64,000 bases of DNA, from the NCBI RefSeq assembly GCF_006345805.1, contig NC_043013.1:20646001-20710000 (forward strand), read 5' to 3'. Below, piece after piece: positions 18,257 to 45,085 of this stretch. The stretch is from Octopus sinensis. Lineage: Eukaryota. Made by a program: the position numbers and the translations under genes. The notes below the pieces were generated by a model. The model did not search any database. It worked only from the letters and a program-made list of their open reading frames with translations, and had not been told where the DNA came from. Positions within the stretch are counted from its first letter, which is position 1; each line of letters starts with the position of its first letter.

Positions 18257-18460
18257 GTAATTAAATCAAACAAGAAACAAAAAGACAACAACGCGAGGAT
18301 GTGGAACAAATAAAGTACTATTGGGCGCTCAGGAAAGAAGGGAAGAAGGAGGGTATGACGGTTCGAGCGGAGCTCTTCGTCGGAAACATAGGAGAAAGAA
18401 AGATCCCTAGGTGGGAGGACAGAGGGAAAAAAATGCAAGTGGTCTTCGCGAGGTCACATT
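18257..18460 (-). mobile_element. ~205-bp (TA)n-inserted element with a hammerhead-like motif (copy A)
   Basis: Homologous end-to-end to 43357-43564 and flanked by (TA)n on both sides. Minus strand 18353-18387 reads GUUU-CCGACGA-A-GAGC-UCC-GCUC-GAACC-GUC-AUAC. Confidence 0.8.
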
Positions 18461-18588
18461 ATATATATATATATATATATATATATATATTATATATACA
18501 GCATATATAAATACATATATATAGTTATACATATATATGTATATATACATATATATTTATACGTATATATGTATATATAAATACATAT

Positions 18589-19863
18589 ATGGGTTGGGTT
18601 GGACAACATAATGAAAACACCTTAAAATTTCAAACAAATGTTTTTTAATATGATAGGACCGCCTTTGGCAGTAATTACAACTTGAATTCTTCGAGCTATG
18701 GACTCGTACAACGTTTGAATTGTTTCCAAAGTAATTTTTGTCCATTCTTCTGCTAAAACAGTCTCCAGTTCTTGTAGTGATGATGGTGGACGATATCGAC
18801 TCCTTACTTTTTTTTTCTAAAATGAGCCCTTAAATGTTCAATACTATTGAGACATGGGGGCTGTGGTGGCCAGATAAAATGTTCAACTTCACTAGAATGT
18901 TCCTCGTGCCATTCAGTAACATCTTTAGCTGCGTGAATTGGTGCATTATTATCTTGAAAGATTGCTTTTCTCTCTGCAAGCAATTCTGCAACCATAGATT
19001 GAGATAGAAGCTTAAATTGTCTTAACTATTAATTCTGCCATGAAGAGAAACCATTGAGCCGGCGGACATTCAAGATATAGCCACCCCCACCAGATCATCA
19101 TAAATCCTCCTCCGTGTTTAACAACTGGAAGAAGGCAGCCTGTGTCAAATGCTTGTTTTGACTGCCTCGACACCTATTATCGGCTGGTGGTCGGAAATAA
19201 GGTAAAGGATGACTAGTCCGCAGAAATAACATTCTTCCACTGCTCTAGGGACCAATTCTGTAGGTTTTTACTCCAATCTAAACGCCTTTCAATGTTTGTT
19301 TTTGAAAGTAGTGGTTTTCTGATTGCAGCTCTCCGATGAAATCCGGGTTTGCGCAGCACCTGGCGAACAGTTTTTTGTGAAAACTGGGTTCTCGAGGTAG
19401 TCATTAAGCTCTGCATTAATTTTGGGAGCTGTACTTTTGTGATCCTTTTTATCCATTTGTGTAAGAGTCCGACGGTCTCTGTCTGAAAGTTTTAGTTTTC
19501 TTCCGGAGTTTTGTTTCAACGAGTAGGTATTTCCTTCTTTCCCAAAGGCTGTCATTACTTTCGAGACCGTACTTCGTGATACACCAAACATTTCGGGTGT
19601 GTTCGTTACACTAGCGCCTGCCATAGGAGCACCAACAGTTTGACCTCTTTGAAAGTCAGACAGATCTGTCATTTTAATGAATTTAAATTACCCTTTTCTG
19701 ATGATATCTGAAAAGAAAGAGCAATTTTAGCAAAAGATATTAAGCAACATTAATAATAAATCAAAAAACATAAAAAGAAGCAAGCTTTTGAAAGTTTTAT
19801 AGATATTACAAAATTGTGATGCTTTGATGCTAGGTGTTTCCATTATTTTGTCCAACCTCTGTA
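18589..19863 (-). mobile_element. Near-full-length Tc1-family transposon
   Basis: TIRs ggttggacaacataatgaaaacacct / aggtgtttccattattttgtccaacctctg-ta, embedded in (TA)n; about 1.27 kb. Confidence 0.93.
18650..19672 (-). pseudogene. Frameshifted Tc1 transposase (DD36E-like spacing)
   Basis: ORF pieces 19289-19672 (MTDLSDFQRGQTVGA...GVSRSTVSKV...GRKLKLSDRDRR), 19213-19416 (RRAAIRKPLLS...RRLDW...WKNVISAD) and 18804-18995 (IFQDNNAPIH...WPPQPPCLNSIE). Confidence 0.92.
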
Positions 19864-21278
19864 TATATATATGTAAATATATTTATGTATATATATATTT
19901 ATGTATATATATATATATATATATATATATATATATATATATATATATATTATATATATATATCATTACATATATATATATATGTATATATATATATGTA
20001 TATACATATATATATACATGTATGCATATACATATATATGTACATAAATATTTGTATATAAGTATATATATATATATAATAAATGTGCATATATATATAT
20101 GTATATATATAATATATATATGTACATGTATATATATATATGTATATATGTCTATACATTTACATATATTTATGTGTATATGTATATTTATGTATATATA
20201 TATATATCTATATACACATATATTTATGTATGTACATATATAAATCTATACGAGTATATATATATATATATATATATATATATATATGTGTGTGTATGTA
20301 TGTATATGTATATATGCGGTGTGTGACAAAAGCGAATAAGCCGAAACTTCGAATTCACGATCAACCTTTCCTTTGTAAAAGTTTAATAAACATGTAGTCC
20401 ACTAGAAGATATTGAGTTATCCTTCTCGCTTAATATCAAGTTATTTTTTATATACAATTTGGCATAAAAACACATACATGTGTATGCGCGTGTAGTGTGT
20501 GTATATATATATATATATATATATATATATATATATGCACATACATGCACACAGACACGCACACACACACTCATACTCATGTATATATATATATGTGTGT
20601 GTGTGCGTGTGTAGGTGTGTGCGTGTGCGTGTATGTGTGTGTGTGTATATAATCAAACAGATGAAAATCGTACATGCTTATATACGTAGCTACATTTATA
20701 ATGAAAACAGAAAATGCAACGAAACACAGGACGTAACGCGCACACGCAAGCGTATGACGCACTCACACATGCGCGCATTACCTTTTGCACAGTTGCTGCA
20801 AGACACGTGTTGCATGCGACAGAGCATAGCATTTAGTCCAGAACCAAATGTAGTTTCTACACCGTAACCAACATATTCCTACCACACACAGATGCACGCA
20901 CACAGGCATTGATATACACAGCTTCTCTCTCGTAGTTTCACTTCACAGATGCATATATATATATATATATATATATATAAATATATAGACGCACACACAG
21001 AGATACTCTCTCTCTCTCTCTCTCTCTCTCTCTCACTCGTGCATAACACGTCTCAGTGGTTCCACAGAGAAGTAAGATGTCACACGGCTAGTAGCAGCTT
21101 GCCTGGTGGAGCGATGCATGCCCACTAGTAACCGTGCGTTTTACACACACTGATACACATCGACACACACACACACACACACACACACACATATAAACAC
21201 GCACGCATACACACGCGCGCGTACACGCGCACAAACGTTTACTGTTATGCAGGAAGAAGCGATCCAGTCAAAAGCTTA

Positions 21279-21876
21279 CAGGTGGAGATAGATAGAGAGC
21301 AAGAAAGAGAGAGAGAGAGAGAAAGAAAGAAAGAAAGAGAGGAGGGAGAGAGTGAAGGAGAGAAAGAGAGAGAGAAAGCAACAATAAAACCTGGCGCAGT
21401 CGCAGATACATTTACCTGGCTGAAGAATACAAACGCAAGCCTATACCTTACCTGTTTTCTTTCTCTTCTTTCTTTGTAACACCCCCTCCTCCTCCCTCTA
21501 GAATTGCTATTTCACCTGAGAAAAGACTTTCAGTTCAATGGACAGGCAGAAAACCTGTGTAGTTGCAGACATACCTACCTTATTCTACAACAGGTCCTTA
21601 TTTAATTTTGTATTATTTAAAAACAAAAGTTTTTACCGATTCTCCCCCACCCAATGGTCCTTTCCTGTGATGTTTTACTAACACACCTGTGTTACACCTG
21701 TGTTAGAATGAAAAGAAATCAAATTCTGGCACTCCAGCATATAATTCTATTTAAACATTTACCTTGATATTCTAATATCGCATTCATTTCTATCTTATAT
21801 CAATCTTCCGTGATTTTGCTATTACACAAGAGTTACACCTGTGATACACCTGTGATATACCTATGAGTTAGACCTG
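21279..21876. promoter_or_regulatory. Dense CAGGTG/CAGGTA (Snail/Scratch/ZEB-type) site cluster, candidate cis-regulatory module
   Basis: Eight CAGGTR sites on either strand (21279, 21413, 21449, 21513, 21684, 21695, 21836, 21847) plus four other CAGGT cores in ~600 bp of non-transposon sequence. Confidence 0.55.
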
Positions 21877-44519: not shown

Positions 44520-44695
44520 TTTTTTTTCTCTCTCCGTTTTTCCTCTTTATTCCTCATATTTTATATATTTTCCTCCCTTTCTATCGAAGAGCTAAGGCTC
44601 GAAAAGTCAAAGACTTTCCATTCTTCCCGAGCGTCAAACTAAAACACCTGATTGTTGTTCCCTCACCTGTTTTCGTCCTTTGTTTCAAGTATTAA
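44520..44695 (+). mobile_element. Divergent relative of the hammerhead-bearing element (copy E)
   Basis: 44577-44612 reads CUUU-CUAUCGA-A-GAGC-UAAG-GCUC-GAAAA-GUC-AAAG, followed by cccgagcgtc and ttgttcc as in the other copies. Confidence 0.55.
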
Positions 44696-44711
44696 TAAAT
44701 TTGAACTGTAT

Positions 44712-44905
44712 TCTTTTATTCTTTTACTTGTTTCAGGCATTTGACTGCGGCCATGCTACAGCACCGCTTTTTTTTTAGTCGAACAAATCGACCCCAGGAC
44801 TTATTCGTTCTAAGCTAGGTAATATTCTATCGTCCCTTTTGCTGGACCGCTAAGTTACGGGGACATAAACACACCAGAATCGGTCGTCAAGGGAACAAAC
44901 ACATA
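44712..44905 (-). mobile_element. SINE family B, 3' half
   Basis: tttacttgtttcaggcatttgactgcggccatgct...aaatcgaccccaggacttattc...ccgctaagttacggggac. Confidence 0.8.
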
Positions 44906-44927
44906 TATCATATAAATGTATATATAT

Positions 44928-45085
44928 ATGTGACCGCGTGTGTATCGTTGGCGATTTTTTCCTCCGTTTTCCCATCCTTGGATCTTTCCTTTTTCTATGT
45001 TTCTGACGAAGAGCTTCGCTCGGAACGTTAAATCTTTCTTTCCTTTCCTGAGCGTGTTTTTCAAGTTTGGATTAACTTTCTGTTT
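44928..45085 (+). mobile_element. Hammerhead-bearing element, internally deleted (copy D)
   Basis: Starts atgtgaccgcgtg like copies A and C and ends tttggattaac near (TA)n. 44999-45033 reads GUUU-CUGACGA-A-GAGC-UUC-GCUC-GGAAC-GUU-AAAU. Confidence 0.8.

Follow-up and report, generated by a model that had tools for sequence, protein, structure and literature searches.

The window analysed here is a 64,000-nt stretch of the Octopus sinensis genome (RefSeq assembly GCF_006345805.1, contig NC_043013.1, positions 20,646,001 to 20,710,000 of the forward strand), which has a GC content of 35% and is rich in microsatellites. It contains dispersed copies of a noncoding unit of about 205 bp with a minimal hammerhead ribozyme (min-HHR) motif. 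Comparison of these copies with each other and with the 2.72-Gb assembly shows that the units are solo copies of a pseudo-long terminal repeat (pLTR), hammerhead motif included, and that this pLTR belongs to an autonomous, Neptune-type Penelope-like element (PLE). The features of the window that belong to this element and to a sister family are as follows.

18257..18461, minus strand: copy A, solo Neptune-type pLTR with a CCGA core and an AUAC helix I strand
18353..18387, minus strand: minimal hammerhead motif of copy A, with U4C, A15.1 read as C, and U.U in helix I
35946..36073, plus strand: copy B, 5′-truncated pLTR that opens within helix II, in its 3′ strand (35949)
43357..43564, minus strand: copy C, full solo pLTR terminating in GGATTAAC at the 3′ side, where (TA)n (43298-43355) adjoins
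43456..43490, minus strand: minimal hammerhead motif of copy C, intact apart from U4C
43565..43576, minus strand: about 12 nt of upstream element sequence of copy C, beyond the supposed start and matching the upstream sequence common to other copies
44520..44706, plus strand: copy E, decayed pLTR of the sister PLE family, with a hammerhead remnant at 44577-44612
44928..45076, plus strand: copy D, solo pLTR belonging to the older CUGA subfamily; some 60 nt are deleted internally
44999-45033, plus strand: hammerhead motif of copy D, A13 read as G
47915..48089, minus strand: second decayed sister-family pLTR, 71% identical to copy E (E 7e-17)

Copies A, B, C, and D are homologous, with 76-86% identity in pairwise blastn comparisons (E 1e-16 to 1e-52; the short overlap of B and D is weaker, E 5e-4). 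Their 3′ termini read GGATTAAC or GATTTAAT and lie at (TA)n or no more than about 10 nt from it, in agreement with a preliminary description of this DNA, and copy A is flanked by (TA)n at both sides. The same description had counted five related copies and did not list the second sister-family pLTR. The count is right for A-D, whereas copy E is only marginally similar to C (69-73%, blastn E 0.01-0.04), is closer to sister-family pLTRs (72-76%), and belongs with that family. Copies A, C, and D do not begin at one same base, as had been proposed, since C runs about 12 nt further upstream in element sequence. The hammerhead layout, thought to be present in each copy, can be recognized in A, C, D, and E, though damaged (GAAC in A and GGAA in D in place of GAAA; CUAUCGA...GAAAAG in E), whereas copy B retains only the 3′ half (35949-35963) and has lost the C(U/C)GACGA half. 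It was correctly noted that no copy in the window has a fully canonical core; C comes nearest, with U4C as its only difference. Based on our own reading of the hammerhead position numbering in copy A, its motif is predicted to be inactive, and the predicted cleavage site in copy C lies between 43460 and 43459.

The parent element and its subfamilies

Three of the 30 best genomic matches to the unit have extra 5′ sequence in common, which extends up to 1.5 kb and through a CA-rich tract, and a search with its far end revealed coding sequence for a reverse transcriptase (RT), a Cys-linker, and a GIY-YIG endonuclease. A protein search for this open reading frame (ORF) had 23,856 candidates, 88 of which were scored; they yielded 91 matches, which fall into a closer class (about 68-87%) and a sister class (about 61-62%); 14 loci of the former and 6 of the latter were taken through the ORF. 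The pLTR lies 3′ of the ORF in all 14 loci of the closer class and also 5′ of it in 5, and an E-like repeat lies 3′ of the ORF in all 6 loci of the sister class and also 5′ in 3. Units of the form pLTR-ORF-pLTR exist (L205, L206, L222, L189, and L224), with a motif-to-motif distance of 5.3-6.3 kb; the corresponding distance in the sister family is 4.3-4.5 kb. The order of the element is pLTR, 5′ untranslated region (5′-UTR), ORF, CA-rich 3′-UTR of about 2-3 kb, and pLTR, with a short TTTATATA tract directly after the pLTR and before the 5′-UTR. The translations of L205, L206, and L215 contain an RT, a Cx4Cx2C linker, and, at the C terminus, a GIY-YIG domain with CCHH, and Pfam models detected RVT_1 followed by GIY-YIG in three of three ORFs, with scores mostly below the curated cut-offs. 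An inverted adjacent pLTR was observed in L286, L292, L313, and L188.

The assignment of the unit to the pLTR of this element is based on its position at the flanks of the RT/GIY-YIG ORF and on the match between copies A-D and ORF-linked pLTRs: 85-89% identity for A and for B, 94% for C (L211 and L222), and 88% for D (upstream pLTR of L208). An autonomous Penelope element sharing the unit as its pLTR, which the preliminary description had suggested looking for, was therefore found in 14 of 14 closer-class loci, and both the proposed mobilization by a PLE and the association with (TA)n, at which the 3′ ends are fixed, are borne out. In a tree of 86 pLTRs (50 solo and 36 linked; copy A left out; bootstrap not fully settled), solo and ORF-linked copies interleave, with 18 label changes, at least 11 of which are forced by supported branches, and both kinds occur in the same subfamilies.

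The element resembles the endonuclease-containing (EN+) PLEs of the Neptune clade, as far as these are covered by the consulted parts of the published accounts, in its RT, its linker (CX2-5CxxC in Neptune), and its C-terminal GIY-YIG domain with CCHH (10.1101/2021.04.23.441226; PMC3846280). Partial-tandem pLTRs of about 200 bp, inverted adjacent pLTRs, optional tails, microsatellite targeting, and solo pLTRs are also common to both. The octopus element differs from Neptune EN+ PLEs in its long CA-rich 3′-UTR, in the very high proportion of its pLTRs that are solo and start in a sharp cluster, and in tails of 46-130 nt versus 30-40 nt. Membership in Naiad was rejected because the endonuclease is C-terminal. 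A genome search with the Pfam GIY-YIG model gave 5,030 candidates. It also brought up several other Neptune-like families (L136-L155), whose ORFs span about 780 codons and are in many cases intact; in those loci, the pLTR was not seen as an element end.

The family is indeed very abundant, as had been suspected: exact genomic matches to a 33-nt core pattern number 7,153 (reversed control, 0), such exact-match counts being lower bounds for family size. CUGA is found in 2,151 of them, which have the full canonical layout (helix I, CUGANGA, unpaired N, helix II, GAAA, palindrome, UH), and 5,002 (70%) have CCGA, i.e., U4C; a third variant with U.U in helix I (CCGA...GUC AUAC) has 1,089 exact matches. 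Among ORF-linked pLTRs, 17 of 19 have C at position 4, and the CCGA/AUAC group includes both open ORFs of 1008 aa. The canonical CUGA core looks to be the oldest of the three, because the median nearest-neighbour divergence is highest in this subfamily (0.046, compared with 0.027 in CCGA/AAAC and 0.016 in CCGA/AUAC); among the younger subfamilies, U4C was gained first and then U.U in helix I. The succession of CUGA, U4C, and U4C plus a helix I mismatch may thus provide a natural age series on the need for hammerhead cleavage in PLEs.

Ends of the copies and a proposed origin of solo pLTRs

Copy ends were surveyed in the first 90 of 100 core matches listed on contig C1, one adjoining match being skipped; copies shorter than about 135 nt are excluded because the sample requires an intact core. 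At the 3′ side, 69 of the 90 copies have the terminus followed by TA repeats, 2 continue into the 5′-UTR, and 3 have other flanks, while 16 ends could not be parsed, mostly owing to mutated termini and in a few cases to truncation. After two duplicate partners had been dropped, 47 of 88 starts were found within -7 to +5 of an ATGTG landmark and 63 within 15 nt on either side, whereas 16 lie further upstream (9 of them beyond 150 nt) and 9 further inside. The 31-nt bin at the boundary holds 63 copies and its neighbouring bins 3 each (binomial p about 1e-15). An exact pattern across the supposed start has 147 genomic matches versus 2,599 when a pattern of the same length is placed immediately inside it, a ratio that is inflated by subfamily differences. 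The "fixed ends" of the preliminary description are therefore fixed at the 3′ side, whereas the 5′ side is a sharp cluster that a minority of copies pass. That description also held that random 5′ ends would make these units ordinary truncated pLTRs; although the ends cluster sharply, a separate element is still not needed. A TA/TG repeat adjoins 27 of the 63 boundary copies and is absent from the other 36 (a rough test), suggesting that microhomology alone is insufficient. Several subfamilies have TCA(G/A/T)T at the 5′ boundary, which we take to be initiator-like. A rotifer pLTR with TATA and initiator motifs has been described (PMC3846280).

Two further observations concern these copies. The idea that U4C favours solo copies is not supported, because CUGA (23/27 at the boundary) is as solo-rich as CCGA/AAAC (36/44) and the youngest subfamily is the least (6/19). 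In addition, L009, L021, L022, and L025, which are on different contigs, have a common 3′ flank and three of them also a common 5′ flank, which may reflect segmental duplication, assembly redundancy, or transduction.

Junctions between the pLTR and the 5′-UTR were collected at 30 loci from 35 matches and sorted by eye. In six, element sequence goes on for 1.5 kb or more. Another 8 break off after 46-130 nt and give way to flanking DNA, which makes them pLTRs with an optional tail, whereas 14 jump to a second pLTR or to sequence immediately before one, at points that all differ; in one the jump leads into the ORF, and one is a chance-like match. As 14 of 15 jumps land at a pLTR, random deletion in a 5-kb element is unlikely, and we infer RT priming 3′ of the upstream pLTR, run-off at the RNA start, and occasional template switching.

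The pLTR-spacer-pLTR chimeras (L288, L290, L291, L294-L297, L300-L302, L304, L310, L311, and L314) have spacers of about 40-470 nt. Each has a junction of its own, and they are possible retrozyme precursors, indicating how such precursors could arise.

The solo copies of this Neptune-type pLTR are likely run-off products of an RT that primes in nicked (TA)n 3′ of the upstream pLTR, and the sharp 5′ cluster likely marks the start of the element RNA. Transcription by RNA polymerase II would start at this cluster, at the initiator-like TCA(G/A/T)T; the endonuclease would nick (TA)n, and the RT would prime internally on UUUAUAUA. Priming after the upstream pLTR would yield run-off copies of about 205 nt, the majority, whereas priming after the downstream pLTR would yield randomly 5′-truncated long copies as well as pLTR-ORF-pLTR units. 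After run-off, the RT may sometimes jump to another RNA and generate the pLTR-spacer-pLTR chimeras. The template would mostly be uncleaved RNA, and the hammerhead would not be needed for solo copies. The pLTR is also covered by contigs of four presumed-RNA runs, a few of them reaching across the predicted cleavage site, but as these may be DNA and ends are not visible in them, they say nothing about cleavage.

A close parallel is provided by PAc, a PLE of the Poseidon clade from Anolis (PMC11167929). In vitro, its RT initiates internally at the pLTR-ORF junction, 3′ of the pLTR, which would likewise explain fixed 3′ ends and tails, and its targets are also AT-rich. Insertion was independent of the hammerhead, whose mutants still inserted, and the portions of that study considered here report no RNA ends at the cleavage site. 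The ORF of PAc starts inside its hammerhead, whereas the octopus ORF starts downstream of the pLTR, and here the 3′ boundary is a TA-like tract. The 5′ cluster, the pLTR-plus-tail copies, and the chimeras thus lend genomic weight to the view that priming is internal, at the upstream pLTR. In previous work, solo pLTRs have been ascribed to recombination or deletion (PMC3846280). The literature covered, which excludes Repbase, most subscription papers, and supplements, holds no account of the hammerhead of this family or of a run-off origin of solo pLTRs.

Several observations weigh against this interpretation. In the youngest subfamily, only 6 of 19 copies start at the boundary and 10 start further upstream; the upstream pLTRs of the junction loci also cluster less, 8 of the 15 measurable ones starting within -7 to +15 (the start of the other 15 of 30 was unmeasured, most of them being truncated inside the pLTR). 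In the tree, solo and linked labels are more clustered than in shuffles (18 changes versus a mean of 27.7), and one supported clade of 4 solo copies has no sampled master. The RT start site of PAc is not homologous to its target, whereas pairing with (TA)n is proposed here (PMC11167929). Finally, the choice of Neptune rather than Nematis as the clade name is provisional, as it is drawn from the linker and from (TA)n/microsatellite targeting and not from a tree of reference proteins.

A first alternative, which we consider unlikely, accepts the copies as solo pLTRs of the same PLE but attributes the cluster to ordinary 3′-primed truncation, with an RT stop, ATGTG-(TA)n/(TG)n microhomology, or endonuclease resolution at the AT-rich TTCAAAAT. 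It is consistent with the 27 of 63 boundary copies that adjoin TA/TG repeats, with the 16 of 88 copies and 147 exact matches that pass the boundary, and with the endonuclease-mediated resolution proposed for PLE tails (Craig et al. preprint, as far as consulted). Yet the other 36 boundary copies have no such flank, and a GTGTGTA at +10, which the RT would meet first, catches fewer ends. Moreover, pLTR-plus-tail copies can come only from the upstream pLTR or a tandem junction, and there is no obvious structural stop, because the whole unit folds no better than shuffled sequences (z 0.54).

Possible independent propagation: ribozyme SINE or retrozyme

Two further explanations would give the solo units a life of their own. 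The first, which we regard as improbable, is that they are self-propagating monomers, a kind of ribozyme-bearing short interspersed nuclear element (SINE), in which (TA)n would act as a TATA-like signal with the initiator at the 5′ edge, U4C and the helix I mismatch would spare the transcript, and the Neptune RT would recopy it. If so, the active lineage would have turned the hammerhead from a catalyst into a structural signal. Whatever their origin, such units are easily misfiled as SINEs in genome annotation.

The second, that of the preliminary description, is that solo units form a non-autonomous retrozyme-like family whose transcripts self-cleave as dimers, circularize, and are re-copied by a PLE RT. 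Non-LTR retrozymes, to the extent covered by the parts of the two sources used here, are also short noncoding units with a type I hammerhead and a link to PLEs (PMC7229834; preprint 10.64898/2026.07.22.740005), and the sharp ends and high copy number of the octopus unit, the single 4-member solo-only clade, and the 14 of 30 junction loci with two pLTRs a few hundred nucleotides apart, which correspond to the raw material proposed for retrozymes (10.64898/2026.07.22.740005), would all suit such an origin. But retrozymes are defined by tandem units (PMC7229834; 10.64898/2026.07.22.740005), occurring as head-to-tail repeats with canonical HHRs and giving linear and circular monomer RNAs (PMC7229834), whereas the copies here are scattered single units that are the same as an autonomous element's pLTR and carry a minimal HHR in the middle. 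No head-to-tail array was seen among the first 100 core matches on contig C1, no genome-wide search for arrays having been made; these matches include one same-strand pair less than 1 kb apart, of different subfamilies and with TA repeats between them, and adjacent copies in L071, L222, and L081/L082 are likewise parted by (TA)n. The chimera junctions are all different, the core is minimal, with U4C in 70% of exact matches, and a circle or an HHR-to-HHR monomer would end in mid-unit at the cleavage site, which the copies do not. Since solo and linked copies interleave and tandem arrays were not seen, the retrozyme reading fails, and we consider it highly unlikely.

The hammerhead motif

The preliminary description had recognized a minimal type I hammerhead of the PLE type, and the layout agrees with that of published min-HHRs: an unpaired base after A9 (before 10.1), a G10.1-C11.1 pair, and a palindromic CG. 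The consulted parts of the description of PLE min-HHRs (PMC4209133) list a short helix I, an unpaired nucleotide 9/10.1, G10.1-C11.1, a palindromic 15.2-16.2, and no helix III as common features, and place mostly single motifs in pLTRs, with thousands per genome. The occurrence of minimal hammerheads in PLE pLTRs in such numbers is thus already published. Helix II of the octopus motif has only 4 bp compared with 7-8 in Schistosoma min-HHRs, and its core variants also differ: U4C is present in 5,002 of 7,153 matches and the sister family has U at position 6, whereas that study names U3-A8 (PMC4209133). Its supplementary alignments may already include such motifs or U4C variants. The accessible sections of an octopus repeat annotation list active Penelope families, and the words "hammerhead" and "ribozyme" are absent from them (PMC13282606).

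A structure descriptor had 209 matches in 1.43 Mb of loci, which are motif-enriched by the way they were chosen, and none after shuffling; among the window copies, only C fits it. The proposed covariation was observed between families in a hand-picked set of 19 motifs, taken from this family, its sister, and more remote ones: in 6 of 9 pairs both partners differ, and 87% of cells can pair compared with 26-43% in slid controls. This set represents few lineages and few independent events, and helix II of its three distant rows is misaligned. Two signs of selection proposed for the window copies did not hold within the family. The helix II loop is UCC in 91 of the 100 core matches listed (the pattern fixes the stem), and the coordinated helix I change from GUUU/AAAC to CUUU/AAAG is a difference between families. 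Excess conservation of the 35-nt motif relative to the rest of the pLTR was not significant within the family (Fisher p 0.30-0.80 over 6 pairwise comparisons that left out indels). The suggested check against Rfam was negative: no hammerhead was present among 150 of 386 matches listed for the window, nearly all of which were miRNA models driven by microsatellites, and no family matched at the gathering score in 5 loci.

That the resemblance is a chance one or a dead relic without constraint is most improbable, even if the Rfam result, the lack of significant excess conservation, and the gain of U4C and then of helix I U.U in younger subfamilies would agree with it, given the descriptor matches in these motif-enriched loci, the cross-family pairing, and the 2,151 exact canonical-core copies in the layout of published PLE min-HHRs.

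With regard to activity, the probability of helix II in the full context of the unit is 0.18-0.29, and in the predicted monomer fold of CCGA copies GACG pairs with CGU(U/C), which buries the core. The excerpts consulted of earlier studies report that U4C strongly lowers in vitro hammerhead activity yet is tolerated in a viroid (PMC3088659), and that PLE min-HHRs, which mostly occur singly and derive from truncated PLEs, show low activity as dimers (PMC4209133). The octopus hammerhead would probably cut weakly, as a dimer or with protein help.

Related motifs occur elsewhere in the genome. In the sister family (L215-L220, e.g., L215:2727-2841), where ORFs of 900-1009 codons are nearly intact, the min-HHR carries U at position 6 of its core (CUGUUGA), and its helix I reads UCUUU/AAAGA. 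A hammerhead motif whose palindrome is GUAC forms the end of an unrelated Neptune-type family (L138:3185-3245, minus strand; L148:5123-5183, plus strand), one copy having CUGAAGA and the other CCGAAGA, so that the U4/C4 alternation recurs. Min-HHR motifs that are more distant, combining the canonical core CUGAUGA with a longer helix II, were found at L011:2191-2243, L217:8518-8570, and L068:3550-3601.

The window also contains repeats of other kinds. Three copies of an element of about 385 bp (29706-30089, 34121-34507, and 54657-55043) are 96-98% identical, and the 3′ part of this element resembles a reverse-strand tRNA-derived head; it is probably a young SINE. A tandem duplication of about 620 bp with 97.5% identity is located at 34571-35833.

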